From a virus (Duplodnaviria; Caudoviricetes), in IMG/VR virus record IMGVR_UViG_3300015360_000023, positions 138,610 through 202,609 of that record: a stretch of 64,000 nucleotides of DNA; one strand, given 5' to 3'. The position numbers and the translations under genes were made by a program. Position 1 is the first letter of the stretch; each line of letters begins with the position of its first letter. The notes under the pieces are model-generated. The model saw only the letters and a list, made by a program, of their open reading frames with translations, had not been told where the DNA came from and did no database searches. This document shows positions 12,505-64,000 of this stretch, one piece after another.

Positions 12505-14013
12505 TCATGCGGCCCACCACTCAATTATCTCGATATCGCTATAAGGCCCTCCACATGGAAATACTGGCGCATTATCTAGTCTAATTGTAGTATCTACCCA
12601 AGTTACTGGTGTCGGAGTAGAACAAGATAAATCATAAACTCTTAGCTTATAATAAACGATTTGATCTGTTAATTGATTTGGTAGTGCTCCATAATTATAA
12701 ATTTGCTGAAAATATGATAAAGGCCTAGCAATATTAGCTATTCTAAGATCAGAGATCATAAAATTAGCTTCTTCCTTTGTTGGAGAGGAAGTTACTAAAT
12801 ATGGTGGAGTAGCTCCAATTGCTAAATATCCTGAGGCGGAGCTTGTAGGAGTAAAAATTAATCTTGTGTTAGCTGCTGGGATTGTAGTAGCATTACTAAA
12901 AACGGTACTTTTACCACCTGCTGCACTTTGTATACCAATAGACACTGTATTAACAGAGGTAGAGGTTGTATATAAAGTTTCATAAACATCTAAACCTTCA
13001 AAAAATTTGATTTCGGCATTTAGAGTACCTCCCGCCAAAGAGTTCATTCTCCATTCAATAATAAATGTTCTATTTGGGGCACTTCCTACTGTAGTGGTAA
13101 AAATACCTAATCCACCACCACTCGTAGTAGTATCTCTCTCACAAACGTTAATAAGGGGACCTAGTCCAGCATTCGGTAAGCTAAAACCAAATGCATTTGT
13201 ATTTTGTCCAAATTCTACAAATCCATTAGAAGAAGCAAAAACAGACGAATAAGAAGCTCCATATAAATTAACAGTAAATGGTAAGCTTACTGATGTCATT
13301 ACTTCATCTCCATGATTTCCAATATCATCAACTCCTGGAATATAAGTCCCTGTAGAAGAAGTAATAGCATAACTGACATCATTATATACTATTGATTGAG
13401 TTGTTGCCGCTAATGTATTTAATTGAGTAGCGCCGCTATATCTTATTAACTGACAGCCGTTTAAATAAGCTCTAATATTGGTTCCATCATGAGTCATTCC
13501 TATATGATTCCATTGTGCCAATGGCATTGGAAAATCTGTAATGGTCATATTAGTCTGAGTAGTTGCTGAGTTACTAAAGCCAAAATATAAATCTTGTCCG
13601 CTGTTTGTGGAAGCATTTGATATTTCAAATGAGAAGAAGGGGGACGCAGAGGTATTGGTAATAGTATGATCTCTAAATAGTTTTCTTACATATTGTTGAA
13701 AGCTACCATTGTTAATATACCCTCTTTGATTAAGCCAGAAAGATAATGTAAATGGTGGTTGTGGATTAATAGTATTGGCGCCAAAGATATAATTTCTAGT
13801 AGCTGATGCGCCAGTTGGATAGTTACCAGTTCCAGGAAACCACGGACAATTTCCACCATGAATTCCGGTTGCTGTTCTTATTATTGTTCCTGATACACTC
13901 AAATCAGTTAAACTATTATTAGGTGAAGTAACCCCTGTATTTCTATAAACGCCTGAGGTTTCATCTAATTTATAAACTAGTATGTCATTTGAGTCTGGAT
14001 TTACTTTAGCCAT
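12505..14013 (-). CDS. LamG/concanavalin A-like lectin-fold protein, probable receptor-binding or baseplate component
   Basis: WNHIGMTHDGTNIRAYLNG and DLRIANIARP LamG-like segments; extra central domain; C-terminal YYKLRVYD module. Confidence 0.75.
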   Translation of the reverse strand: MAKVNPDSNDILVYKLDETSGVYRNTGVTSPNNSLTDLSVSGTIIRTATGIHGGNCPWFPGTGNYPTGASATRNYIFGANTINPQPPFTLSFWLNQRGYINNGSFQQYVRKLFRDHTITNTSASPFFSFEISNASTNSGQDLYFGFSNSATTQTNMTITDFPMPLAQWNHIGMTHDGTNIRAYLNGCQLIRYSGATQLNTLAATTQSIVYNDVSYAITSSTGTYIPGVDDIGNHGDEVMTSVSLPFTVNLYGASYSSVFASSNGFVEFGQNTNAFGFSLPNAGLGPLINVCERDTTTSGGGLGIFTTTVGSAPNRTFIIEWRMNSLAGGTLNAEIKFFEGLDVYETLYTTSTSVNTVSIGIQSAAGGKSTVFSNATTIPAANTRLIFTPTSSASGYLAIGATPPYLVTSSPTKEEANFMISDLRIANIARPLSYFQQIYNYGALPNQLTDQIVYYKLRVYDLSCSTPTPVTWVDTTIRLDNAPVFPCGGPYSDIEIIEWWAA

Positions 14014-51119: not shown

Positions 51120-52088
51120 GCAAACCCTCTTAACGCCTGATTGAGGTAGTGAAATACTACTTCGTGCTTGCACCAGGTCAAACTACCAAAAATACTAATT
51201 TATTCACCTATTTGTCACACTACCTAACACCCCTTTATTTTTATTAATTAGTAGTGCCTCTATACGCCATGTACAGGGCTCTAAAGCCCGCATGCCCTGG
51301 TCTACCTGATAGGTGGCGCGGATTAGTTTAAATAGCCACTCCGCCCCAGGACAACCCCTTCTTAAGGCATAGTGGTAATCGCATATTGTGATCTTTTATA
51401 ATGGCATTAGATGCTTATGGTGGGATATCTTCCCATATTGTGGGATTGAGTGGCATGTATGGTCATATATAGTTGATCAAAAGGGCTGTTTTGGTAATTT
51501 ATATGTTAGTTGAAGGCTTATGGATGCTATCGTAACGAATCAATTAGTGCTATCTGATTGGTTAATAGCTATCGGAACTTAATAGTGCCCATTTGGGAGG
51601 CGGACTGCCAGCGCACACGTCGGACACCCCCACCTTTTGTATGCTGTTGTAGGTGGCATGCTTCTTGCACCTTGCAAATTTTAGACTACCTACATCGCGC
51701 ATATCATCTAACAATCTCTTTATTTTAATCATAGCACACGATAAGTAATATTTTTAATTACATAGCACACATTGTATTGTTTTATAAGATATCATCCGAC
51801 ATTGGGCCGATCGACCTGTTTCGGCCCTCTGGCATACTCTTTGCTCCTTGCAAGGCCCGAGCCAAGGCCCCGTCAAGCCTCCCTAGGCCCTATGACACCA
51901 AGATCATACCCCTAACCCCTCGATATCATTAGGTAACTACTAAGACCTACATTGATCTTTCGGACCAAACATGATCGATCTGTCATGTAGTCAACAAACT
52001 TACCCAGTCATATCGCGTAGTTAGCGCTGGCATGTCTCGTGCATCGTTCCAGGGTAGGGGAAGGACCCCAAAGGAGACGAGGTACGAC

Positions 52089-52802
52089 ATGCCGCACTTC
52101 AACCGACTTGGTGGTGACATGGACGAGGCGAACGCCGAGTGTGCGGCGATGGACCAGGAAGACGCAGACCGTAAGGAGACCGCCCACATGAAGACCCTGA
52201 TTGAAGCCGTCAAGAACCATGCCAAAGCCAACTACGAAGTCGGCGGGTGGGACATGGTGGTTGAATGTTACGAAGACGCCGAGATCGGCGAGGCCATCGC
52301 AGGATGTGCGACGGTGGAGGAGGCCATTGCCGAGGTGGGCAAGACGGCGTCCCTCTACCACGAGAGGCGACAAGAGGCCTGGAGTGAGGGCGGGTTGGAC
52401 AAGAACGGCCGAAGTGTGGAAGACAACGACATGCTGTACGCTGAGGAGGAAGCTGCCCACATTGCAGCAGAGCATCAGGGGGTGTCCTACCTCAACACTG
52501 ATGAGCTGACGGGGTACGAGGAGCACTGCCGAGATGAGGAAAGCACCTACGGTGACCCCCGACGCTGCCCGCGTCACCCACATGTCACCATTGGTTCCCC
52601 GTGTGGGATGTTTGACGGTGTGTGCGGTGAGTGTGAGTATGGTATGGAAATGGAGGACGAAGAGTTCCAGGGTACGGTGCCTGCGGTGGTTGTCAGTGTT
52701 GCACCGACTGGTGTGGAAGTTGTGGCCTGCTGTAAGGAACCGAAGGTGCTGGGCGGCAAGTGTGAGAACTGTGGGACTTGGTCCGACGACATTCCCTTCT
52801 GA
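52089..52802 (+). CDS. Acidic hypothetical protein with Cys clusters
   Basis: SD AGGAG/GAGG before ATG at 52089; CPRHP…C…C..C and CC…C..C motifs. Confidence 0.65.
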   Translation: MPHFNRLGGDMDEANAECAAMDQEDADRKETAHMKTLIEAVKNHAKANYEVGGWDMVVECYEDAEIGEAIAGCATVEEAIAEVGKTASLYHERRQEAWSEGGLDKNGRSVEDNDMLYAEEEAAHIAAEHQGVSYLNTDELTGYEEHCRDEESTYGDPRRCPRHPHVTIGSPCGMFDGVCGECEYGMEMEDEEFQGTVPAVVVSVAPTGVEVVACCKEPKVLGGKCENCGTWSDDIPF

Positions 52803-52826
52803 CCTACATCACCTCTGATGTGAGAG

Positions 52827-52856
52827 AGCCTGCCACACGGCGGGCTTTTTCTTTTT
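52827..52856 (+). terminator. Intrinsic terminator
   Basis: AGCCTGCC-ACAC-GGCGGGCT stem followed by a T tract. Confidence 0.8.
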
Positions 52857-53025
52857 CCGTTTTCCGTATGGAATACTCTTTGCAAGTTGCAAGACCCGAG
52901 CCAAGTTCCGGCGCAACCCACATGAAAGTAAAGGTGGGACAAAAGTGATGTAGCATGTTTGATCGTTCCGCGTTTTCTGCTAGGCTCTTAGTCGTCCCAC
53001 CCTTTCCCTCAGAGGCCAGACCTAC

Positions 53026-53481
53026 ATGTCCTACATCTACCTCGTGATCCTCACTGCTGGCTACTCCTGCTGCGATCAGCTCCAGCGTACGTTGCGAGCC
53101 TTCACCGACAAGGGAGAGGCCGAGTCCTACATGGGTGACATGAAGCACACCATCAGCCGAAACATGGGACTGCGGCATGCGGTCGACGTCTACATGTCCG
53201 ACGTGTGGGGCAAGGTCAACCCGGCTCCCACTTCCTGCCCCTCGTGGGATAACCAGCGCTCCGACGAGGAGAACGAAAAAGCCTACAAGGATCACCAAGA
53301 GGCGTACAACACCTACAGCGATGCCCGACATGCGGAAGAAACCCGCATGCTCTCACTGGTCGGGTGGAAGTGCGAGCTGGACCTACGTTGGGAGGAGCAG
53401 TACGACCTCCACCTCCAAGAGGTGCCGCTGGGGTTTGAGGTGGTTGCCCCTCCGACAGAGGTGGCAGAAGCCGCAGAGTAA
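53026..53481 (+). CDS. Hypothetical protein
   Basis: 151-aa ORF between a promoter motif and a terminator. Confidence 0.65.
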   Translation: MSYIYLVILTAGYSCCDQLQRTLRAFTDKGEAESYMGDMKHTISRNMGLRHAVDVYMSDVWGKVNPAPTSCPSWDNQRSDEENEKAYKDHQEAYNTYSDARHAEETRMLSLVGWKCELDLRWEEQYDLHLQEVPLGFEVVAPPTEVAEAAE

Positions 53482-53494
53482 CTCACAGTGTGAG

Positions 53495-53522
53495 AGCCCA
53501 CCTTACACGGTGGGCTTTTTTC
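53495..53522 (+). terminator. Intrinsic terminator
   Basis: AGCCCACC-TTACAC-GGTGGGCT stem followed by a T tract. Confidence 0.82.
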
Positions 53523-53656
53523 TGGGCCACGTTTCTCGCGGCATACTCTTTGCAATGTGCAACGTCTATGCCAAGTAAGAAACTGTATTGAGATGTAGGA
53601 TAAAAGTTTTTTTGTAGTTTCGTCAGAAAGGGATGGTCCGTTGCGTCTTCTAGATC

Positions 53657-54007
53657 ATGAGCGCAACGGAAACCGCTACGGTGCAAAGCGCAGTTTGCAC
53701 CACCTCTGACCACATCTCCCACTTTGTGGATGTTATCTCCGGTGAGGTACTGGATGAGGACGAGGTAGGATGTTTCATTGATTGTGATGCGGAGGGTCAC
53801 CCTCTCGCAGGTTCTGATGAGATGGGTGTATGGTGGGGAACTGAGCGAGCTGTGTGGGTTCTGTCCCAGCAGTACTACACTGTAGAGGTTTGGGGCTGGA
53901 TGGGGCCCGATCCTTACATTGGCCACTTCCTCGGTACAGAGGAGGAGGTTCGTCACTACTGTGAGACTCATGGAGTGAAGGTAGACCTTATCCAGAGCGG
54001 GCGGTAA
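53657..54007 (+). CDS. Hypothetical protein
   Basis: 116-aa ORF between a promoter motif and a terminator-like hairpin. Confidence 0.6.
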   Translation: MSATETATVQSAVCTTSDHISHFVDVISGEVLDEDEVGCFIDCDAEGHPLAGSDEMGVWWGTERAVWVLSQQYYTVEVWGWMGPDPYIGHFLGTEEEVRHYCETHGVKVDLIQSGR

Positions 54008-54020
54008 TCTGCTTACATCG

Positions 54021-54049
54021 GAGGGGAGGGCTTACCTCCCCCTTCTTTT
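54021..54049 (+). terminator. Probable intrinsic terminator
   Basis: GGGGAGG / CCTCCCC stem followed by TTCTTTT. Confidence 0.55.
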
Positions 54050-54317
54050 GTCTCCAATGAAGGCAAAAGTTTACCCGTATCGTACTTACCCAGACAGTGT
54101 GGTATAGGTGATACCTGGCATACTCTGTGCAAGTTGCATGATCTGGGCCAACTACAGCTCGCTTACCATACGACAAGGGGTAATGTAGGCTAATGTAGTT
54201 GGTATACTCTATGCAATATGCAAGCTAGCTATGCCAACACACAATGTAGGAGAACAAGCCGAAGATCCAGACCAGTCGGGGGTTGGCATACTCTTTGCTA
54301 CTTGCACTCCACGTGCC

Positions 54318-54556
54318 GCGCCAGCGGCGCCAGCGCACTAGAAGAGGAGACCGCCGAGGCAGGTTTTGCCCACATCTCCTGACGTTGGCATACTCTGTGC
54401 GATAAGCACTCCTCGTGCCATGGCGCCAGCGGCGCCAGCGTCGGACCATGCCGCGCCAGCGGCGCCAGCGGCGCCAGCGTGGGAAGGGTCGCGCGAGACG
54501 CGCCAGCGGCGCCAGCGTCGGACCATGCCGCGCCAGCGGCGCCAGCGGCGCCAGCG
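54318..54556. repeat. 12 copies of GCGCCAGCG, including a perfect 57-bp direct repeat (54423-54479 = 54500-54556)
   Basis: Read directly: blocks of 2, 2+3 and 2+3 units, with the TCGGACCATGCC spacer inside each 57-mer. Confidence 0.9.
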
Positions 54557-55498
54557 CTCGCACAATGCGAGCAAAACCTATGACACGAAGATCATACCCA
54601 CGAGGTGGTTTTGACTACCTCTTGCGACGTTTACCTACAGTGCCAGTTTCTCGGGGTTTCTCGACAATCGGCGAGCCCATGAAAGATAATTGCTTATCCT
54701 ACATCGCAGAATGTAGCGGAAGATCGATCAAGCATGACGCTAAGATCATTGTCGTACCTTTGGTCACCCTAACAATATCATATAGTTACGTTTGGCACCG
54801 ACGTTGCATTAGTGTCTTTCCGTAACGAGCGGCGGAACGGGACGGGACGCTAAGCGGCCCAAGCGCACTATGTGCGACCTTTCCCTGCTCGCTTGACCGC
54901 GCCTCGGGCGCCTACATATCCCACCTCTGGTGGGACGCAGTGGGGTTGCACCCACATGTAGTTGACATGCTCACAAGTCCTACTCTGGCGACCGTGTGAA
55001 CGGTATGCGCGCTCTCGTAACTCCCGCACCTACATGGTGCAAAAGGGAGCGAGGGAAGGCGATACCGGGATAAGCGGTAGCGAAAGGTAGGCAAGGGTCG
55101 GCTGGCTAGAACGGTCGCGGGCAAAACCTGGAACCTACAGTGTAGGTTCGGTTGCAAGCTGCGCGGTGACGCCTAGTGCGAGACGACCCTACAGTGTATC
55201 CCGAGGAGGGATAACCCGTTCAAGGGGCTGCGACCAGCGATTACACCGTCCGACAATGTAGGACATAAGGTGGCGAGGGCTTCGCGACTAGGCAATCCGA
55301 CGTAGGCAATCAACCTACAGTATCGCGACCTAGGCTTCTTAGGGGAGGTGGTAAGAATCCACCTACACTAAACAACGCTATGTGGGACCTATGTAGGTCC
55401 CGCGTAGCGGAAAGCTTACAAGGTACGACAATCTTGTTGGCTTTCCGCTACGACTGTAAACTCTCTAACCCAAGCAAAAGAAAAGGTAGGATACTATC

Positions 55499-56065
55499 AT
55501 GAAGAACACCACCACGTCGGACAAGTCGGTCAAGGTCGTCTCGGATGCGCGCTCGGAGGAGATCCTCTCCTGCTTCCGCACGCTTCACCACAAGGTGCTC
55601 CAGGCTCTCACGGAGTGCGAGATCCCCGCACTCTTCAACGCAGACTTCGCCAAGTGTGCGCCGGAGGACTACAAGCTCCTCCACCAGCAGAGCCGCGCCC
55701 TGATCGGCGCCAAGGCCAAGGCGGCGTGGGACACCTACATCTCCGACATCAAGGAGAAGATCCAGGGTGTCATCGACACCCACATGAACCTCGCACGTGA
55801 GGACAAGTCGGAGTGGGATTGCCTCTCGGATCGCGCCAAGGGTCGCAGCCCGTGGTCCAATGTGGTCAAGGTGCCGGTGTCGGACCTCATCCCCTGTTTC
55901 GCCGAGGGTAAGGCCCTGTCGGAGGTGGTGGCAGAGCTGGACAAGCTGTTCTCCGGAAAGGTGGGCAAGGGTAAGGACGACTCCTTCTACCTGAGCCTCG
56001 CGTTCACCCCGGCCGCCAAGGTGGTCGAGGTGGTCGAAAGTGAGACGGCGGCAGTCGCGGCCTGA
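55499..56065 (+). CDS. Hypothetical protein with strongly GC3-biased codons
   Basis: SD-like AGGTAGG; clean 188-aa ORF. Confidence 0.75.
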   Translation: MKNTTTSDKSVKVVSDARSEEILSCFRTLHHKVLQALTECEIPALFNADFAKCAPEDYKLLHQQSRALIGAKAKAAWDTYISDIKEKIQGVIDTHMNLAREDKSEWDCLSDRAKGRSPWSNVVKVPVSDLIPCFAEGKALSEVVAELDKLFSGKVGKGKDDSFYLSLAFTPAAKVVEVVESETAAVAA

Positions 56066-56487
56066 GCCACCTACACCCTGCTCCCAGGTGCCCCTATGTG
56101 GGTGCCTGGGGGCATGAGTAGTTTGCTCAACCACATTGGCATACTCTGTGCTACTTGCACCGACCATGCCATAGGAGTGATCTAATGTGCAACCGATGTC
56201 GAACGGGGACGTGTAAGCCCTTGTGTCATGACGTGGTTTGCTACGAGAGCAAGGCTTCCCGTATGTGGGTATCTAGTCCACATGATGGTCAACTCGTTCC
56301 CATCGTGTGCTTCCCCCATACATGGAAGCTCAAGTGGGGCTCGCCGGCCAACTGTAGCGGCAAGTAGCATCTTGGCATACTCTGTGCTCCTTGCAAGGTT
56401 CATACCAACCCAAGGCACACATGCGCCCACAATTCTAGTTGCATCAATCCTGATTGGTGCTACAATTCTATCTGTCCTAAAGGAGCA

Positions 56488-57012
56488 ATGACCATGCGAA
56501 TGATCAGCCATCGGACCCACACCTACATCCCCCACTTCCTGCTCATCTTCACCTACGGTGGGCAAGGTGGGTGCTTCACCTTCGAGTGCGATAAGCACGG
56601 CAACGTCAATGTGAGCAATCTCTCACCGTGTGCGCTCAAGAACTACAACACCTGCATGAGCGGACATGTGGTTGCCTCCCCTCGCCGGCAGCAACGGTCG
56701 TATGTGGTCGATGGTGAGACCATGTACGAGAACGCCCCTGGATGTGACCAGGAGGTTACCTACAAGGTGGACAGTGATGTGCGGGACTACGGCAAGTACG
56801 AGCACACCGCCGCTGTAGGTGAGTGTGACCGCTGCGGCCGACACGTCCACCTACATGGGTTCACCAACACCTGCGAGTGTGGGGCGGACTACAACATGTC
56901 GGGTCAACGTCTCGCTGACCGCTCGCAATGGGGCGAAGAGACGGGTGAGAGTGTATCCGACATCCTCTCCGTCGACTCCGACATGTCCTACAACGACTAC
57001 GGCTGTCCGTAG
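56488..57012 (+). CDS. Hypothetical Zn-finger protein
   Basis: SD AGGAG; C-terminal CDRCG…CECGADYN.SGQ.LA…QWGEETGE. Confidence 0.7.
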   Translation: MTMRMISHRTHTYIPHFLLIFTYGGQGGCFTFECDKHGNVNVSNLSPCALKNYNTCMSGHVVASPRRQQRSYVVDGETMYENAPGCDQEVTYKVDSDVRDYGKYEHTAAVGECDRCGRHVHLHGFTNTCECGADYNMSGQRLADRSQWGEETGESVSDILSVDSDMSYNDYGCP

Positions 57013-57059
57013 TTCACTCACATCCACCCACACCAACCTTCACTGAAAGGAAACATCCC

Positions 57060-57230
57060 ATGATCAAGTTCATTCTCCTCATTCTCCTCTGTTTCGGCGC
57101 CTATACGGCGCTGTGTGTGTTCGCCCCCTCCACGTGGGCGCCGGCCTTCCGCATCTCGGGTCATGGCATTCCCTACCTGGCACTCGGTGTGTGCCTGTGT
57201 GGGTACGTTGGCTACAAGGCCATCAAGTGA
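57060..57230 (+). CDS. Small membrane protein (56 aa), absent from the ORF track
   Basis: Manual translation MIKFILLILLCFGAY…YKAIK; AGGA upstream; two hydrophobic segments. Confidence 0.6.
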   Translation: MIKFILLILLCFGAYTALCVFAPSTWAPAFRISGHGIPYLALGVCLCGYVGYKAIK

Positions 57231-57337
57231 AGGCGGAAACGCAGGAGGTAGGATACCTGGCCACCATTCTCCTCACCATCGCAGTGGGAGGTGTCTTCCT
57301 CCCCGTCTACTACATGGTGGTTTCCTTCCTCTTCTAG
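57227..57337 (+). CDS. Small membrane peptide (36 aa)
   Basis: GTGA overlap with the previous gene; single hydrophobic stretch. Confidence 0.45.
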   Translation: MKAETQEVGYLATILLTIAVGGVFLPVYYMVVSFLF

Positions 57338-57472
57338 AGGAGTGCAGCGACAGAAAGGAATCAGGTGGGTTCGACTCCCACCCTGCCTGTCGCCTAATTC
57401 ACACATTGGCATACTCTGTGCAACTTGCAGGGTGCATGCCCACGAACGTCAACCCACACGTAGGAGGATGTC

Positions 57473-58024
57473 ATGAACGGTATGAGCAAGGAGACGCTTC
57501 TGGTCATCATCAGCACCTTGTCGGAGAAGGTGGCAGTGATGGAGCTGGTCAACGACGGGTACGCCAAGGTGGTTCAGGGCCTGGAAGCACACAACGACCG
57601 ACATCACCTCGACTTGGACGATGCGCAGTACACCATCTCCGACCTCCGCCGACAGTTGGAGCGGGTCAACAACGACAAGGACGACAGCTCCTACCGTATC
57701 CGACAGGAGAACGACCGCCTGTACGCGGAGGTGCGACAGCTCAAGCAGGAGAACTACAGGCTCACCTACGGTGGGTCGTCTCCCGAAGAGACGGCGACTG
57801 CCTACATGCAGCGCCAGGGGGCGGCCGTGTGGGCAAACGGTGAGCGGATTGCCTGTATCAAGGTGTGCCGCGAGGTGAGCGGATGGGGGCTGAAGGAGAC
57901 CAAGGACTTCTGCGAAGCCTACATGGACCGACAGAAGGTGACGGAGGAGGAGTCGCCCTCCGGTACCAAGCGGTCCTCGCAGATTCCCGCAGGTGTGGGA
58001 GTGCAGAGCAAACGGTCGGCCTAA
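57473..58024 (+). CDS. Coiled-coil protein with a C-terminal ribosomal L7/L12 CTD-like segment
   Basis: SD AGGAGG; RIACIKVCREVSGWGLKETKDFCE resembles KIxVIKxVRxxTGLGLKEAKxxVE. Confidence 0.6.
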   Translation: MNGMSKETLLVIISTLSEKVAVMELVNDGYAKVVQGLEAHNDRHHLDLDDAQYTISDLRRQLERVNNDKDDSSYRIRQENDRLYAEVRQLKQENYRLTYGGSSPEETATAYMQRQGAAVWANGERIACIKVCREVSGWGLKETKDFCEAYMDRQKVTEEESPSGTKRSSQIPAGVGVQSKRSA

Positions 58025-58081
58025 GCCTACACCCTGCTCACCTGGGAAACCATGTGGGCAGGAGTAGTCCAAGGAGGACAC

Positions 58082-58297
58082 ATGAAAGCAATCATCCTAC
58101 TCATCGCACTCTCAACCACTGGGTGCGTACCTGTCATCGCAGGTATGGCGCTGAGGGACCACGGTGATCGCAAGTGGCAGGAGATGGAATACCGACATAA
58201 GGAGAAGATGCGCGAGCTGGACATACAGGAGCGCACACTCAAACAGAACGCACCACAACAGAGTAACGGTGCGATAGTCAGGGACAACCCTTACTGA
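58082..58297 (+). CDS. Small probable lipoprotein
   Basis: SD AGGAGG; MKAIILLIALSTTGC signal/lipobox-like start. Confidence 0.6.
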   Translation: MKAIILLIALSTTGCVPVIAGMALRDHGDRKWQEMEYRHKEKMRELDIQERTLKQNAPQQSNGAIVRDNPY

Positions 58298-58478
58298 CCT
58301 TGGCATACTCCGTGCTCCTTGCAAGACTCATACCGCACCAAGGGACACCCACCTCTACACACATCAATCTTTCCTAAAAGACTTGGTGCATCTTACTTGA
58401 TACGTGCTATCTTATCAGTCTCTCGTTTCACTCCAACCAAGCCGCTCCGAGAGGAGCCAAGTACGAGGAGGTAGGACA

Positions 58479-59363
58479 ATGGCTATCAGCGTCTACGAAG
58501 TGGTTACGGAGCGCATCATTGCGGCACTTGAGAAGGGTGTCGTACCTTGGCGCATGCCCTGGCGCACACAAGGTGGGAGCAACATGCCCCGCAACCTACA
58601 GTCCGGCAAGGACTACCGTGGAGTCAACATCCTACTCCTGGGGTGCATGGGGTTTTCGGACCCACGTTGGTGCTCCTACAAGCAGGCTGGCGCCAAGGGC
58701 GGACAGGTGCGCAAAGGTGAGAAGTCCACCCCGGTCATCTTCTGGAAGGTGCTTGACAAGAAAGGTGGGAAGCCGGGGGAAAAGTCCTTCATCCTCCGCT
58801 ACTACAATGTCTTCAATGTGAGTCAGTGTGATTGGGCGGAGCCGCTGCCCTCTCTGACTGGAGACGCACCTGCACCCACCTTCGACCCCATCGAAGAGTG
58901 CGAGCGGATCGTGCTGTCCTACAAGACCATACCTGCCATCGACCATGGCGGTAGCCGAGCCTGCTACATGCCTACCTTTGACCGGGTATGTATGCCTGCC
59001 AAGGAGAGCTTTGGTAAGAGAGAGGAATACTATTCCACACTCTTCCACGAGCTGACTCACTCTACCGGACATGAGAGCAGGTTGAACCGTGATGGGATCA
59101 TGAATCCTATCCGGTTTGGCTCACATGACTACAGCTTTGAGGAGCTTGTAGCCGAATGTGGGGCGGCGTTCCTCTGCGCACAAGCGGGTATCATTGACCA
59201 CACCCTGGACAACAGTGTGGCATATATCCAGAACTGGGCAAAGAAGCTGAAAAGTGAGCCCAAGTGGATTGTGGAAGCGGCAAGCAAAGCGGCCAAGGCG
59301 GCTGACTACATCTTCCCACCTCCTGCGGTGAAGGAAGAGGAGTCGGAAGAAGAGGCTGCGTGA
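58479..59363 (+). CDS. ardC: ArdC-like ssDNA-binding antirestriction protein (DUF1738 plus zincin-like domain)
   Basis: VT.RII..LE.G..PW..PW, Y.G.N, YYSTLFHEL.H.TGH, Y..EELVAE; SD GGAGG before 58479. Confidence 0.85.
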   Translation: MAISVYEVVTERIIAALEKGVVPWRMPWRTQGGSNMPRNLQSGKDYRGVNILLLGCMGFSDPRWCSYKQAGAKGGQVRKGEKSTPVIFWKVLDKKGGKPGEKSFILRYYNVFNVSQCDWAEPLPSLTGDAPAPTFDPIEECERIVLSYKTIPAIDHGGSRACYMPTFDRVCMPAKESFGKREEYYSTLFHELTHSTGHESRLNRDGIMNPIRFGSHDYSFEELVAECGAAFLCAQAGIIDHTLDNSVAYIQNWAKKLKSEPKWIVEAASKAAKAADYIFPPPAVKEEESEEEAA

Positions 59364-59762
59364 AGGTAGTGTACGTGACTGGGCCATCTATCTCCTTAGT
59401 GTGGGAGGATGGCTCAGTCTGCTCCTACATCTGGTCACCAAGTAAAGCGGCGGGCAAGCCCACATCAGGGGGGGTGACGCTAGCCTACCCGCCGCATCTG
59501 TAAGTTAGTTCTTCTGACAGCGGATGCGAGCGCGACTGTAAAACGAGCGCCTACACCCTGACCATATGTGAGCATTACGCCAGCATGTGGTCAGAAGTAG
59601 GCTCTTGCTGACATTGGCATACTCTGTGCTACTTGCAAGATAGCTGCCACGGCGAGCGAGAGAAAGGGCACACACCCACCCACAATTATGTTGGGAAGGT
59701 GTCGAATGTAATTGAAGCTAGCATCACTTCTGATAGAATGATGCTGGTAGAAAGGAACACAC

Positions 59763-60047
59763 ATGTTGACGCGCAAAGAGGCAATGTCGGATATCAACCT
59801 GGGACGTGGGATTCAGCTCACCTTCGTGGGTATGTTCACTACCTTCTCCGTCATTGTGCGCCAAGGGTACAACGGTGTGGGTGCGGTTGCCCACATCGAG
59901 TGTCCTGTCATGCGCCGCACCTACAAGGTGTTCCTGACCAGCAAGCAGACGCTTGCCTACATCAAACGACATTACACCCGACATGATGCGGGTGTGGATG
60001 GTGTGCGTGTCCAAGCGGATCCATTCAACTACAAGAGGGTAGCATGA
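59763..60047 (+). CDS. Hypothetical protein
   Basis: AGGA upstream; follows the promoter motif at 59615. Confidence 0.6.
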   Translation: MLTRKEAMSDINLGRGIQLTFVGMFTTFSVIVRQGYNGVGAVAHIECPVMRRTYKVFLTSKQTLAYIKRHYTRHDAGVDGVRVQADPFNYKRVA

Positions 60048-60475
60048 ACGACAAGCGGCCTTGGAGTGAGGGAGGGTGCGACAAGCCCTTCTGTGTCAGT
60101 GCATGGTCCGACACCCCTGGTGAAACGGACACATGTAGCATGGGCGTCGACTTCTCCACCGAAGTGGAAGCACGTGAGTGCTTGGCGCAGTTCAGCGCAC
60201 GATTCCCCTGGACGAAGGATCTTCCCTACCTTCTCCTCGACGGTCCCGACGTTCACGAGGTGACCACGCGCACACTTCAGCTCAAGCGCTCACAACGTGA
60301 GCAGGAGAGGGACGAACGTGAGGCAAGGTCGGAGCAGGCCATGCAAGCAGGGATGGGTATGGGGATTCACGCCTACAACGATGCCATGGGGTACGACAGT
60401 GAGCCCTATGACCCTGCCATTCACGACAGTGACTACGATCGTGAGCCCATGGGTTCCGATGAAGGTTGGTTCTGA
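60044..60475 (+). CDS. Hypothetical protein
   Basis: ATGA overlap; acidic tail. Confidence 0.65.
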   Translation: MNDKRPWSEGGCDKPFCVSAWSDTPGETDTCSMGVDFSTEVEARECLAQFSARFPWTKDLPYLLLDGPDVHEVTTRTLQLKRSQREQERDEREARSEQAMQAGMGMGIHAYNDAMGYDSEPYDPAIHDSDYDREPMGSDEGWF

Positions 60476-60702
60476 TGGATCGGGCCTACACTGGGCACCA
60501 TGAGATTCTTCTTCCCGACATCGAGATCAAGGAGAACCGTGCAGAATACATCTACGTACCTCTGCGCGGTTACTCTCACACCATGGCAGTCTTCACTGCA
60601 AACCTAGACTGTCCGATCGGATGGATCAATAGTGAGACACTTGGTTGCAGTTCCGTCCCTGCGTGGATGGCACTCACCAAGTGGGTTGACCAAGGCTACT
60701 AA
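60475..60702 (+). CDS. Hypothetical protein
   Basis: TGATG overlap start at 60475. Confidence 0.5.
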   Translation: MDRAYTGHHEILLPDIEIKENRAEYIYVPLRGYSHTMAVFTANLDCPIGWINSETLGCSSVPAWMALTKWVDQGY

Positions 60703-60718
60703 CCTGAAAGGTACGACC

Positions 60719-60994
60719 ATGAACGAAGAAGACGATGATCTGGACGAGTGTGAGGAAGAGGAGCAGGAGTACTACGATGACCGTGAGTGTGAGGATGGCG
60801 ACTACCTAATCGACGGTGTAGGTTTTGCGGACCCTGGCGGTCACTCTTCCCTACGTGCGGAGACGGCCAGCAACCCCCGCAACCTTCCTTGTGGGACGTG
60901 TGGGGAACCTGACCGCCTGACCCCTGCTGACAAGCGACGTGGGTATCAGTGCGACAGTTGCGCTGACCGCGCAGAAGGGCGTGGGGGATACTGA
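60719..60994 (+). CDS. Acidic hypothetical protein with a Zn ribbon
   Basis: SSLRA….NPRNLPCGTCG….LTPAD…GYQCDSCAD. Confidence 0.65.
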   Translation: MNEEDDDLDECEEEEQEYYDDRECEDGDYLIDGVGFADPGGHSSLRAETASNPRNLPCGTCGEPDRLTPADKRRGYQCDSCADRAEGRGGY

Positions 60995-60995
60995 G

Positions 60996-61232
60996 ATGAT
61001 CACCTACCTCAACCCCGACCACGTTGTGGGCAAGCGTCAGACAGCGACTCCGCCCAATCGGAGTCGGTCGGGCTATGGGAACAAGTTGCCTACATCCTGG
61101 CAGCTTCAACTACAGGACAAGAGGTGGAGGCGTGTGTACGTCATCTGCTGGTCAAACAGCGGGTCGGCCTACATCCTGACCAAAAGTGGGAAGTTGTTCC
61201 TGGGCTACTACGAGCCAAGTTACAACCCATGA
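60996..61232 (+). CDS. Hypothetical phage protein
   Basis: GYG.KLPT.W…RWRRVY..CWSNSGSAYI; start MITY at 60996. Confidence 0.65.
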   Translation: MITYLNPDHVVGKRQTATPPNRSRSGYGNKLPTSWQLQLQDKRWRRVYVICWSNSGSAYILTKSGKLFLGYYEPSYNP

Positions 61233-61366
61233 GAACCTACATTCTGGAGCTTCCTCCTCCGGTGGTAGTCAAGCGTAGGTGTGAGTGTTGCAACAACCTA
61301 CTTGGATGTCAGAATCCTGGGTGGGTATGCGACATGTGCAAAAGCATGGGAGGCAAACAGACATGA
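61229..61366 (+). CDS. Small Zn-ribbon peptide
   Basis: ATGA overlap; CECC…CDMC. Confidence 0.5.
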   Translation: MRTYILELPPPVVVKRRCECCNNLLGCQNPGWVCDMCKSMGGKQT

Positions 61367-61584
61367 AGGTGCAAGTGGAGAATGAGGATCTGGTAGCGCA
61401 GCAAGTGGCAGTTATTGAGGGCAACACCTGCATTGTGGTGAGCTGCAATGACTTTGACCACTACAAGCGTCTGCCTGCGGTTGTCTCCTACAACGGAGTC
61501 AAGTGTGGGAAGACGGGGTGGAACAGCGATACCAACCGCTGTCACTACCAGAGCAACGCCCACATCGTTCAGGTGTGTAGGTGA
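61363..61584 (+). CDS. Hypothetical protein
   Basis: ATGA overlap start MKVQ; SD GGAGG. Confidence 0.6.
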   Translation: MKVQVENEDLVAQQVAVIEGNTCIVVSCNDFDHYKRLPAVVSYNGVKCGKTGWNSDTNRCHYQSNAHIVQVCR

Positions 61585-61832
61585 GTGTCAGGGTCTCTAT
61601 TCTGGCAGACCACATCTGCATAGAAGATGAGAGAGGTGAGATAGCGTACTGGGACCGGCAGGAATGGCTGGACGATCCTGACCTTATCCTATCTATCGCC
61701 AATGCAATTCGGGTTGCATGTACGCAAGGAGGAGACGCGGCACGACAATATCCCCGATGCCCTACAGAAGCGTCGGATGAGGAAGACGCTGTACGACATA
61801 CCTTCGTCAATGAAGGCACACGGGAAGACTAG
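61581..61832 (+). CDS. Hypothetical protein
   Basis: GTGA overlap. Confidence 0.55.
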   Translation: MSVRVSILADHICIEDERGEIAYWDRQEWLDDPDLILSIANAIRVACTQGGDAARQYPRCPTEASDEEDAVRHTFVNEGTRED

Positions 61833-61968
61833 CATACAAGTAGAGAGGAGGTAGGATGATCAAGCGCATCATTGGTAGGATCAAGTGGTTCTTCGAGAAC
61901 GACACACACGGACCATGTGACTGGTAACCGTTCACACACCTACATCAACCCACAACGAAAGGCTACAT

Positions 61969-62211
61969 ATGTCTAATACCGACAACAACAAGACGCTCCC
62001 CACTCCTACCACTCCTGCCGACAAGACGGACAAGCGTAAGCAAAGTCTGTACTTTCCGGAGAGTATGCTCCAAGAGATCAAGGAGGAGGCGGCTCGGCTG
62101 GATCGTAGTCTGTCGTGGGTGGTTCAGCGTGCGTGGAAGCTGGCACGGTTGGAAGTCAAGAAACTTCCCAGTGTGTCGGAGGTGTCGGGCGAAGAGGAAG
62201 AAGATATCTGA
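61969..62211 (+). CDS. TIGR04563-like (MXAN_4361/4362 family) small ribbon-helix-helix-like protein
   Basis: TDKRKQSLYFPE.ML.EI.EEA.R.DRSLSW.VQ.AWK.AR recalled as this myxobacterial family. Confidence 0.75.
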   Translation: MSNTDNNKTLPTPTTPADKTDKRKQSLYFPESMLQEIKEEAARLDRSLSWVVQRAWKLARLEVKKLPSVSEVSGEEEEDI

Positions 62212-62283
62212 TGCACTTACACCCTGCTTCATACGCAAGTATGGGGCAGGAGTAAGTTTATCACTCACCAAAAAGGAGACGAT

Positions 62284-62814
62284 ATGCGACAAGTCAAGAT
62301 GGTGTCGGGCGTGAGCGGTTCAGGTAAGAGCACGCACGTGCTCAACGTCATCATGGACTACATGAAGGGCCTAGGTATGACAGCGGAGCAGATGATGTCC
62401 TCTCCCATGCCTACGGCTACGGTGTCGTTGTGTTCGGCTGATTCCTTCTTCGAGGTGCCCAATGAGGGCGGGCCTCCTACCTACAACTTCGATGCATCCA
62501 AGCTGAGCGAGGCACATGGTAAGTGCTTTCGCGACTTCATCACCGCTTTGACTTCCAATGTGGAGTTGGTGGTTGTGGATAACACCAATACCACGGTGGC
62601 GGAGGTTGCCCCTTACTTCCTGGGAGCCCAGGCGTATGGGTACGACATCGACCTCATCACGGTCATGTGTGAGACAGATGCCGACATCAAGCTCTGCGCT
62701 GCGCGGAACACCCACAACGTGCCGGAGGGTGGTATCTTCGCCCAGCATCGGCGCTTGTGTGCGAGGGAGCTGATGCCCTGGTGGAAGAACACCTTTCAGC
62801 CGGTGGTGCGCTGA
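62284..62814 (+). CDS. P-loop kinase/ATPase (AAA_33, polynucleotide-kinase-like)
   Basis: SD AGGAG; GVSGSGKST Walker A, CSAD.F, VVVDNTN, RN.H.VP. Confidence 0.75.
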   Translation: MRQVKMVSGVSGSGKSTHVLNVIMDYMKGLGMTAEQMMSSPMPTATVSLCSADSFFEVPNEGGPPTYNFDASKLSEAHGKCFRDFITALTSNVELVVVDNTNTTVAEVAPYFLGAQAYGYDIDLITVMCETDADIKLCAARNTHNVPEGGIFAQHRRLCARELMPWWKNTFQPVVR

Positions 62815-63041
62815 TGCGCAAGGTTGAATACCTGAGAGCCCTGGATGACCAAACGTGGGATACGGTAGTCATCGAGGTTCCTTCTACTGAGGAGGGACCT
62901 GACAATGGGATTGACTACGACAACCTGAGTGAATCGGATATTGAGGTGGAATTGCAGGACTACAGCAATTCGGTCCTCAGTCGCCTAGAGGCACACAGGA
63001 AGGTGGTTCTGTTCGCCGTCTACAACAACGAGGTGAGCTAA
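62814..63041 (+). CDS. Hypothetical acidic protein
   Basis: TGATG overlap start MRKV. Confidence 0.55.
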   Translation: MRKVEYLRALDDQTWDTVVIEVPSTEEGPDNGIDYDNLSESDIEVELQDYSNSVLSRLEAHRKVVLFAVYNNEVS

Positions 63042-63286
63042 TGCTCTACATCCACTACATCCTGCCGGATGGTGAGGGATTGAAGGAGAGGGAGTGGGAA
63101 GTAGGACAGGCGCAGCCATCCAAGCAGTTGGAAGACGGCGACCTACAGATTCACACCATATCAGCCGAAGGTAAGGAGTTAGCGCACATCATCTCCACTT
63201 TCTCTAACCTGCCTTACAAGTACACACAAGACAACCTATGTGTGTGGAGGGGTGACCTGGCGCGGTTCATCTTCGACAATCTGTAG
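63041..63286 (+). CDS. Hypothetical protein
   Basis: TAATG overlap. Confidence 0.6.
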   Translation: MLYIHYILPDGEGLKEREWEVGQAQPSKQLEDGDLQIHTISAEGKELAHIISTFSNLPYKYTQDNLCVWRGDLARFIFDNL

Positions 63287-63439
63287 GATGAGCGAAGGCG
63301 CGGTGATCGTAAGTAGGGAGTGTGCGCCCACATACTACACCCTGTCTATTATCTGTCTGGCGAATAAGTCGGGTTTATTCGTGTGGCAGATAATGGGCAG
63401 TCGTAGGAGGTGAGACCATGTAACCGATAAGGGGATACG

Positions 63440-63760
63440 ATGGGATGTGAGAACTGTCAGTGCGAGTGTCATAAGCCGGACCGAGGTAGGATGCTAAACG
63501 AGCATGCAAGCCTGGGTGCGCTTATCGTCACTCTCCTACAACAGATACCCGAGGTAGAGAAAGCGGCGAGAAAGACGCCGGCTAAAACAATGATAGCCGA
63601 GCGTGCGAAAGTGAAAGCGGCTCAACTACAACTGCCCATCATGAAGGATAACCTGCTCAAAGCACGGACCGAGCATAGGCAACTAACACTCACATTGGAG
63701 TGCTCGGGTGCTTGGGGTAGGTGGAGACAAGAGAATCCCGGTAAGTCAACTCCCCTATAA
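63440..63760 (+). CDS. Hypothetical protein
   Basis: AGGGG upstream; CENCQCECH start. Confidence 0.55.
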   Translation: MGCENCQCECHKPDRGRMLNEHASLGALIVTLLQQIPEVEKAARKTPAKTMIAERAKVKAAQLQLPIMKDNLLKARTEHRQLTLTLECSGAWGRWRQENPGKSTPL

Positions 63761-63769
63761 AGAGGACTC

Positions 63770-63952
63770 ATGATATCCTACGCTACATTCACCCTCATAG
63801 TCCTCGTACTGTCGATGATGTCCTCCTATGTAGTTAGCATGTGCATTGGTGGGAGTGGACGGGGTACGTGGACCACAATTCGTGGAGTGGAGACAACCTG
63901 CATACACTGTCGGCGTATGCGCAAGTTCACTAGGAAGGGACCTTACCGCTGA
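63770..63952 (+). CDS. Small membrane-anchored Zn-ribbon protein
   Basis: SD GAGG; hydrophobic N-terminus followed by CIHC. Confidence 0.5.
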   Translation: MISYATFTLIVLVLSMMSSYVVSMCIGGSGRGTWTTIRGVETTCIHCRRMRKFTRKGPYR

Positions 63953-64000
63953 TATCCTACAACCGAAGAAAGCTAATTGCCATGTAGGGGTGACGCCCGA

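Follow-up and report, generated by a model that had tools for sequence, protein, structure and literature searches.

The final 64 kb of the 202,609-bp IMG/VR virus record IMGVR_UViG_3300015360_000023 (G000 below) contain five copies of an intergenic RNA hairpin with a fixed internal loop, which is the subject of this analysis. This stretch of 64,000 nucleotides is referred to as the window, and positions are those of the window unless another contig is named. G000 originates from microbial-mat metagenomes and is ~47% complete according to CheckV; seven sequencing runs carry its DNA, all as microbial-mat DNA contigs. The GC content of the record is ~40% overall and reaches 53–58% in window positions ~51,800–64,000. 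Within this high-GC block of ~12 kb, every gene is located on the + strand, and ~24 small open reading frames (ORFs) are present. Pfam scans of 20 block proteins named only the ArdC anti-restriction protein (58479–59363) and an AAA_33 kinase (62284–62814), while the largest proteins of G000, compared with Pfam and PHROGs, indicate a divergent myophage and nothing beyond. The jump in GC content is not an assembly artefact, because a second contig of 204 kb (IMGVR_UViG_3300009177_000028, or G001) repeats the low-GC/high-GC junction with homologous flanking genes; a chimeric assembly is thus ruled out.

The five hairpins start at positions 56071, 58027, 59551, 62216, and 63335, on the + strand only, and there are no others in the 202.6-kb record. 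An earlier note on this DNA had described five + strand hairpins with an outer CUAC/GUAG pair (CUUAC/GUAAG in copy 4), an ACC(C) strand opposite 2–3 nt, and a following CUG/CAG pair (CAU in copy 1). All five are present and fold in this way, with z-scores of −3.7 to −7.7, and none of 200 shuffled sequences folds equally well. Four of the start positions given in the note stand, while the fifth, 59549, marks where an outer stem extended to 6 bp begins, and the motif proper starts at 59551. The exact 10-mer YTACACCCTG occurs five times on the + strand, all inside 7.3 kb of the 12-kb block, and since no + strand occurrence lies elsewhere, the cluster cannot be attributed to chance; the rest of the 202.6-kb genome has one minus-strand occurrence, without a hairpin. 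A covariance model (R1), derived from a gap-free set of 16 copies of equal length (the 41-nt class), finds the five copies with E = 6e-17 to 1e-5 and nothing better than E = 0.001 in the remaining genome.

In what follows, the outer stem is designated P1 and the inner stem P2, and P0 is a basal helix that flanks copies 1, 3, and 4; the extent described in the earlier note is correct for the core, and the element turned out to be longer by this helix. All coordinates refer to the + strand. Copy 1 as a full element occupies 56063–56129 (minimum free energy (MFE) −40.6 kcal/mol in the unconstrained fold, z −4.7; R1 49.6 bits, E 4e-13). Its core (56071–56121) is closed by P1, CUAC 56071–56074 with GUAG 56118–56121, and its P0 pairs UGAGC (56063–56067), including the TGA stop of ORF 55499–56065, with GCUCA (56125–56129). 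A 3×3 loop separates P0 from P1, ACCC faces UGA, and P2 consists of 15 bp (56079–56093/56100–56114). The ortholog of copy 1 in G001, at ~162,562, follows a homologous gene and has a diverged inner stem. Copy 2, of the 41-nt class (58027–58067; MFE −24.2, z −3.7; R1 61.3 bits, E 6e-17), begins 2 nt past the TAA stop (58022–58024) of ORF 57473–58024; its P1 is formed by 58027–58030 and 58064–58067, and directly 3′ of it lie a Shine–Dalgarno sequence and an ATG at 58082. Its G001 ortholog, at 165,224, also follows a homologous gene. Copy 3 extends over 59544–59607 (MFE −36.5 unconstrained, z −7.7; R1 49.9 bits), with P0 formed by CGAG 59544–59547 and CUUG 59604–59607 across a 1×1 mismatch and with an extended P1, GCCUAC 59549–59554 with GUAGGC 59597–59602. 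The core of this copy spans 59551–59600, the loop places ACC against AA, and P2 has 12 bp and an apical extension.

Copy 4 (62209–62263; MFE −29.7 unconstrained, z −7.1; R1 39.8 bits, E 6e-10) has a P0 of UGAUG 62209–62213 and UAUCA 62259–62263, which includes the TGA stop of ORF 61969–62211, and a P1 of CUUAC 62216–62220 and GUAAG 62252–62256; ACC faces GA, and P2 comprises 11–12 bp. Orthologs of this copy follow a homologous TIGR04563-family gene at G001 167,284 and in L141, a third large contig (Logan, 116 kb) that was reached via the protein encoded upstream of copy 4. The apical GAAA and GCAA loops reported earlier are indeed those of copies 2 and 4, and the three copies placed near stop codons begin 2–5 nt past the stop. 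Copy 5 is a long form (63335–63406; MFE −36.2, z −6.5; R1 26.6 bits, E 1e-5) whose P1 (63335–63338/63403–63406) is followed by a loop of ACC against UC and by a 16-bp P2 topped by a conserved 9-bp apical hairpin. It shares 79% identity with G001 170,373–170,463, with compensatory changes, and its apical part recurs at L141:10246. Directly 3′ of copy 5, a strong Shine–Dalgarno sequence (GGAGG) precedes a minimal start-stop pair (AUG 63418–63420, UAA 63421–63423) that is kept in G001 (~170,447–170,463); the next real ORF downstream is 63440.

The earlier note held that the inner stem varies in sequence while always pairing, and it proposed a covariance model and searches of Rfam and phage genomes as a check. 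Both were carried out; they gave strong covariation, matches in phage contigs, and no Rfam class, and the covariation of the inner stem is supported by the model and by the gap-free set alike. In the 16-copy set, 97.3% of cells pair, and two-sided changes are found in 8 of the 12 inner pairs; none of 500 shuffles matches this, and no slid register comes close. At E ≤ 1e-5, R1 yields 50 matches in the collected loci, from about a dozen related metagenomic phage contigs. Once aligned, they pair in 98.1% of cells, with two-sided changes in 14 of 16 pairs; these counts lean towards structure because the alignment was fitted to R1, a bias from which the 16-copy gap-free set is free. P1 reads CCAC/GUGG in place of CUAC/GUAG in seven copies, and CUUAC/GUAAG in copy 4; the opening pairs of P2 vary from CUG/CAG to AUG/CAU and CUA/UAG, so that P1 and P2 both covary in the aligned sequences. 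The G001 counterparts of copies 1, 2, 4, and 5, located behind homologous genes, keep the core and have rewritten apical stems. The conserved core reads (C)CUAC-ACC-CUGCYC ... GGGCAG-NA-GUAG; within it, ~20 nt (CCUAC-ACC-CUGC / GCAG-NA-GUAG) are nearly invariant, with 1.3–2.0 bits per position, and the remaining stem is free to change. Every copy has the asymmetric 3×2 (or 4×3) internal loop.

Several features indicate the strand on which the element acts. As many as 49 of the 50 R1 matches are on the sense strand, the exception being the antisense side of a near-palindromic copy in L156, a close relative. G-U pairs account for 94 of 816 pairs (~11%), a wobble pattern that favours the transcribed sense strand; the sense fold is more stable than the antisense fold in 38 of 47 copies; and R1 scores are ~50–70 bits in sense versus ~12–23 bits in antisense, a two- to fivefold difference in most copies. 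Together with the link to stop codons described below, the G-U pairs, fold stability, and score gap point to a sense-strand RNA, a plus-strand single-stranded DNA (ssDNA) in place of RNA being less probable.

The basal helix is likewise supported by a control. The flanks pair with an energy of −10.1 kcal/mol, and with one of −7.2 ± 0.36 kcal/mol once copies have exchanged their 3′ flanks. Beyond a symmetric internal loop, mostly 3×3 or 5×5, 30 of 47 copies have a P0 of 4 bp or more, compared with 11.1 ± 2.5 copies, and a maximum of 20 in 1000 trials, for swapped flanks. P0 appears in the unconstrained folds of copies 1, 3, and 4, and it covaries (UGAGC/GCUCA, UGAUC/GAUCA, UGAUU/AAUCA, CCUAAUU/AAUUAGG). 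In half of the copies that have it (15 of 30), its 5′ strand contains the stop triplet of the upstream ORF, typically UGA paired with a downstream UCA. P2 reaches 10 bp or more in 46 of 47 copies, with 12 bp as the commonest length, and the apical loop is a tetraloop in 23 of 47. Adding P0 (4–8 bp) and P1 (4–6 bp) to P2 gives ~19–27 bp, whereas copies without P0, such as copy 2, have ~17 bp; the whole element as modelled is thus an interrupted duplex of about two helical turns.

The hairpins are closely tied to gene ends. An ORF stop lies at most 90 nt upstream in 49 of 50 copies, and the distance from stop to P1 has maxima at 5 nt (18 copies) and 9 nt (10 copies). Downstream, no more than 45 nt separate 26 of 46 copies from the start of the next ORF, and the hairpins are therefore not strong terminators. 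The 3′ strand of P0, located 5–13 nt past P1, is under selection, and transcripts must therefore run beyond the hairpin. By inference, the hairpins lie inside polycistronic transcripts. The earlier note had stressed the lack of a U-tract, which is true of all five copies and holds more widely: five or more T in the 9 nt after P1 are found in only 1 of 47 copies, and a TTTT run within 18 nt in 2 of 47, while classical U-tract terminators are located behind the first three genes of the block (52822, ~53495, and 54023). Judged by these features, the hairpins are not intrinsic (Rho-independent) terminators.

A second repeated signal of the block resembles a promoter. This repeat, TTGGCATACTCTGTGC..TTGCA, occurs in 9–10 co-oriented copies at window 51830–59637, with a chance expectation of 0.01. 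One copy (TGGCATACTCTGTGC..TTGCA, 56137–56159, + strand; TTGGCA motif from 56136) begins 14 nt after hairpin copy 1, and another (59615–59637, + strand; TTGGCA motif from 59614) 13 nt after the GUAG of copy 3. In several copies of G001 and of the contigs L162 and L167, the repeat adjoins the hairpin directly (GUAG|UUGGCAU). The order hairpin-then-promoter is seen by eye in ~14 of 47 copies and by a strict pattern in 8 of 46. The repeat (TTGGCAT..TGC..TTGCA) is unlike a sigma70 promoter, a sigma70 scan giving results at chance level, and a scan of viral contigs with the promoter-like 15-mer returned only single, chance-like matches. In G000 it fits the GG-N10-GC spacing of sigma54 promoters (TGGCAT-N5-GTGC). 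A plain sigma54 reading is doubtful because the G001 variant (TTGGCATGCTTGCATGTWGCA; copies at 163,962–171,516) breaks this spacing, with its first GC 3 nt closer and its second too far away; an inverted ATGCCA closes both variants. The G000 contig, which covers ~47% of the genome, yielded no sigma54 activator domain.

A pattern scan found the hairpin motif in G001, in L141, and, with the same 52–59% GC, in ~15 more metagenomic contigs. The gene order differs between G000 and G001, and units of gene and hairpin stay together, also in L141; block proteins shared among these phages are 34–79% identical. With one genome searched per species, 185,579 species of bacteria and archaea returned only three chance matches to the strict motif pattern, all of them structureless; the motif therefore belongs to a phage clade and not to host chromosomes. 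Among cultured phages, neither tblastn of ORF 60044 nor megablast of the block DNA found a match; thus, by these searches, there is no cultured relative of the block DNA or of the one block protein tested. When the proteins of the ORFs preceding copies 1 and 2 were each searched against viral contigs, no relatives emerged, and Atlas look-ups of two block proteins gave no lead.

No known RNA family accounts for the element. Rfam 15 has no match at gathering thresholds for the 64-kb window and none at E ≤ 1 for 54000–64000, and a literal literature search for the core sequence returned only unrelated papers with primer-like occurrences. Along with the strong covariation, this sustains the suggestion of the earlier note that the motif may be an undescribed cis-acting RNA. 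A SECIS element or a stimulator of read-through or frameshifting was rejected: copies 1, 2, and 4 extend the upstream ORF in the frame xCC-UAC-ACC-CUG, which several relatives with other distances between stop and hairpin do not, copy 2 follows a UAA, and conservation is at the foot of the hairpin, not at its apex. The loop sequences, compared by eye, fit neither the K-turn consensus nor that of group II domain V, and a CRISPR-repeat mimic was set aside since the stems are not sequence-conserved. The hairpin is a well-supported RNA motif, new in itself and known in its general type. It is a sense-strand RNA structure with which early cistrons end in a clade of uncultured megaphages.

Early mRNA of phage T7 is processed at intercistronic RNase III hairpins, which leave the upstream mRNA with a protective hairpin. 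The megaphage element resembles these sites (R0.3, R0.5, R1.1, and others) in being an intercistronic hairpin of polycistronic phage mRNA, with a duplex of about two turns, an asymmetric internal loop, conservation around this loop, and no U-tract. The expected product is also the same, an upstream mRNA that ends in a protective hairpin (PMC1540722). E. coli RNase III substrates typically comprise two helical turns, for which stacked short helices can serve, and internal loops restrict cutting to one strand, leaving protective 3′ hairpins (PMC1540722). The earlier note had proposed processing sites or binding sites of an RNA-binding protein by reference to T7; the architecture agrees with RNase III sites of this type, and cleavage or binding is a matter of analogy. 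The resemblance is in fact stronger than first claimed, because P0 extends the interrupted duplex to about two turns. There are differences as well: no sequence similarity is seen, the loop region of the megaphage element is far more strictly conserved, its lower stem is split into a 4-bp P1 and a P0 bearing the stop codon, it precedes promoters instead of following them, and cleavage is here predicted only. The sib site of phage lambda offers another parallel, since its complete RNase III substrate needs read-through past an inner hairpin, as does the 3′ strand of P0. However, sib is a single site that overlaps the terminator tI and destabilises the upstream int mRNA, while the megaphage element has many copies and no terminator.

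By this analogy, the reading that we favour, with a confidence that falls a little short of even, is that the hairpin is an intercistronic mRNA processing and 3′-end-stabilising site, either of the T7 RNase III kind or for a dedicated factor. The two-turn helix would be bound by a double-strand-specific endonuclease, be it RNase III of the host or a dedicated enzyme of phage or host, and the conserved loop would restrict or direct the cut. This would leave the upstream mRNA with a stable hairpin just beyond its stop codon, as a block to 3′–5′ exonucleases, and the downstream cistron would gain a 5′ end of its own with a C/A-rich leader. Some observations speak against such a role. A clear P0 is absent in 17 of 47 copies, copy 2 included; about one third of the copies stand directly before a promoter-like repeat, the classical place of a terminator; no RNase III gene was found in the G000 and G001 contigs (~47–48% of the genomes); and none of the seven runs that carry this DNA is an RNA run. 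Moreover, ~20 nt around the loop hardly vary, a constraint well beyond the known box preferences of RNase III, and because conservation exceeds what RNase III is known to need, a dedicated sequence-specific factor is equally possible.

The arrangement of hairpin before promoter recalls the PeSL cassettes of T4-type phages and for this reason raises a rival explanation, which we regard as unlikely: the hairpin would be the terminator half of a hairpin and early-promoter cassette, a PeSL-like attenuator or insulator that limits spill-over between packed early units. PeSL stem-loops have been demonstrated to terminate (PMC2839356), and in both systems the early region of a large myophage is plastic, with a stem-loop and an early promoter repeated in between small orphan genes and with units of gene and motif reshuffled among relatives (PMC2839356, PMC4122927). 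The 13–14-nt spacer between hairpin and promoter at copies 1 and 3, their direct abutment in several copies of G001, L162, and L167, the ~10-kb sub-block that hairpins and promoter-like repeats share in G000 and G001, and the joint travel of gene and hairpin between G000, G001, and L141 would all suit an attenuator. Such a device would have to work via a factor or a polymerase that recognises the conserved base of the hairpin, as it has no U-tract, though the same block contains classical terminators. Genes that start within 45 nt of a hairpin, as in 26 of 46 copies, need read-through because there is no room for a promoter; the selected pairing 5–13 nt past P1 implies that RNA is made beyond the hairpin; and some promoters, such as that at 58301, have no hairpin upstream. 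PeSL stem-loops themselves are simple, sequence-conserved G/C-tract terminators within or next to sigma70-type promoters (PMC2839356, PMC4122927), whereas the megaphage stem covaries freely around a fixed loop, more than half of its copies have no promoter behind them, and its repeat is not of the sigma70 type. Membership in the PeSL family is thus not supported: the architecture is analogous, the promoter order is found in a minority of copies, and the repeat is not sigma70-like. The ~20 near-invariant nucleotides in an otherwise free stem would also suit a site that is bound and not cut. We consider it somewhat less likely still that the hairpin serves a dedicated phage or host RNA-binding regulator that reads the loop and its flanking pairs sequence-specifically; candidates are an antiterminator loader, a protein that represses or activates translation of the neighbouring cistron, and one that protects the mRNA. 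The state of such a site would depend on a ribosome terminating on the stop codon inside P0: with the stop codon in or within 9 nt of the helix base, a ribosome that terminates there has to melt both P0 and P1. In addition, the 3′ arm of P1 in hairpins of the copy 5 type overlaps the GGAGG of the conserved start-stop pair, while in most copies the downstream ribosome-binding site is outside the structure. No candidate protein has emerged, with only ArdC and AAA_33 named by Pfam among 20 block proteins and no lead from the Atlas, and no known RNA 3D motif fits, the loop failing against the K-turn consensus by eye.

The core sites of attC are RYYYAAC/GTTRRRY. Like attC and REP sequences, the hairpins are imperfect palindromes located just after stop codons, with conserved outer boxes, unpaired spacers, and a variable apex, and they share with REP a GTAG/CTAC tetranucleotide at the foot. 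It might be imagined, at very low probability, that they act as ssDNA elements which shuffle cassettes of gene and hairpin, either as recombination sites like attC, REP, or PeSL or as priming signals. The variable terminal structures stand after small ORFs in a one-directional array, the gene order differs between G000 and G001 with gene–hairpin units intact, and in L156 the flanks of copy 3 are ~85% identical, with blastn alignments breaking at the hairpin. An ssDNA recombination site is unlikely because neither a tyrosine recombinase (PF00589) nor a Y1 transposase (PF01797) was found in the G000 and G001 contigs, which represent about half-complete genomes. Moreover, every copy points in the direction of transcription and is linked to a stop codon at a gap of 5 or 9 nt, and the ~11% of wobble pairs favour the transcribed sense strand and hence RNA, in contrast to attC and REP. 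Neither named class fits: the outer boxes, CCUAC/GUAGG, are unlike the attC core and PF00589 is missing from both contigs, which removes an integron attC, while the inner stem is not sequence-conserved, the orientation is single, and PF01797 is likewise missing, which removes REP/RAYT.

Other features of the block and its relatives deserve mention. In G001 the high-GC domain (161–204 kb) is at least 43 kb long, and G000 therefore ends inside its own; the hairpins and promoter-like repeats are confined to the first ~10 kb of the domain. L141 carries two response-regulator receiver genes further downstream. The ORF upstream of copy 4 (61969–62211, 80 aa) belongs to the TIGR04563 small-protein family, and its product is 70–90% identical to thousands of proteins, the named ones being from Myxococcota (Polyangiaceae, Minicystis); these matches hint at the host, or else at where the high-GC block came from. 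On its + strand, the 12.2-kb block has 43 occurrences of the hexamer CCTACA versus 2.7 expected, and on its minus strand 11. Across the blocks of four diverged phages (51800–64000; G001 161–173 kb; L162; L141) the hexamer is found 153 times versus 31. In coding DNA it stands in all frames, mostly as xCC-UAC-Axx, and it is denser still in non-coding DNA, with no extended consensus. CCTACA forms the 5′ arm of P1 in many hairpins and is still enriched in L162, whose hairpins use CCCACA.

Tandem GCGCCAGCG(G) repeats occupy 54310–54560, and the following ~900 nt without a convincing ORF (54580–55480) contain many CCTACA and short CCUAC..GUAGG hairpins, exemplified by a perfect palindrome at 55131–55147; this stretch may be a structured non-coding RNA or an origin-like region. 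In the usual place of the hairpin, 14 nt before a promoter-like repeat, a tRNA-like mini-element is located at 57347–57393. It combines a 7-bp acceptor-like stem (GCGACAG/CUGUCGC) with a canonical T-arm (GUGGG-UUCGACU-CCCAC), has neither a D arm nor an anticodon arm, and is not called by ARAGORN. G001 has the same T-arm with a compensated acceptor stem, GCGGCAU/AUGCCGC (L137, ~13640–13690), and a similar element is present in L167. It may represent a punctuation signal of the RNase P/Z type.

Almost nothing is known about how the early programme of megaphages is run in uncultured phages. The genes whose ends the hairpin marks are early and probably serve anti-defence (ArdC and many orphans), in a block of odd composition. 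As a cis-signal with 50 copies, an invariant core of ~20 nt, and three covarying helices, the hairpin is precisely defined and testable. It can help to track down the trans-acting enzyme and to annotate early operons on metagenomic phage contigs. Should it be cut at a defined place, synthetic operons would also gain a compact processing or insulator part. A stop codon paired inside a basal helix is unusual and would tie translation termination physically to the state of the RNA. Taken further, and with low confidence, the hairpin might be one half of a new, dedicated megaphage RNA–protein pair, in which a sequence- and structure-specific nuclease or regulator reads the invariant core and is gated by the ribosome terminating on the stop codon in P0; in that case, the cutting or protection of each early mRNA would require that the upstream gene has been translated, or else that it has not.

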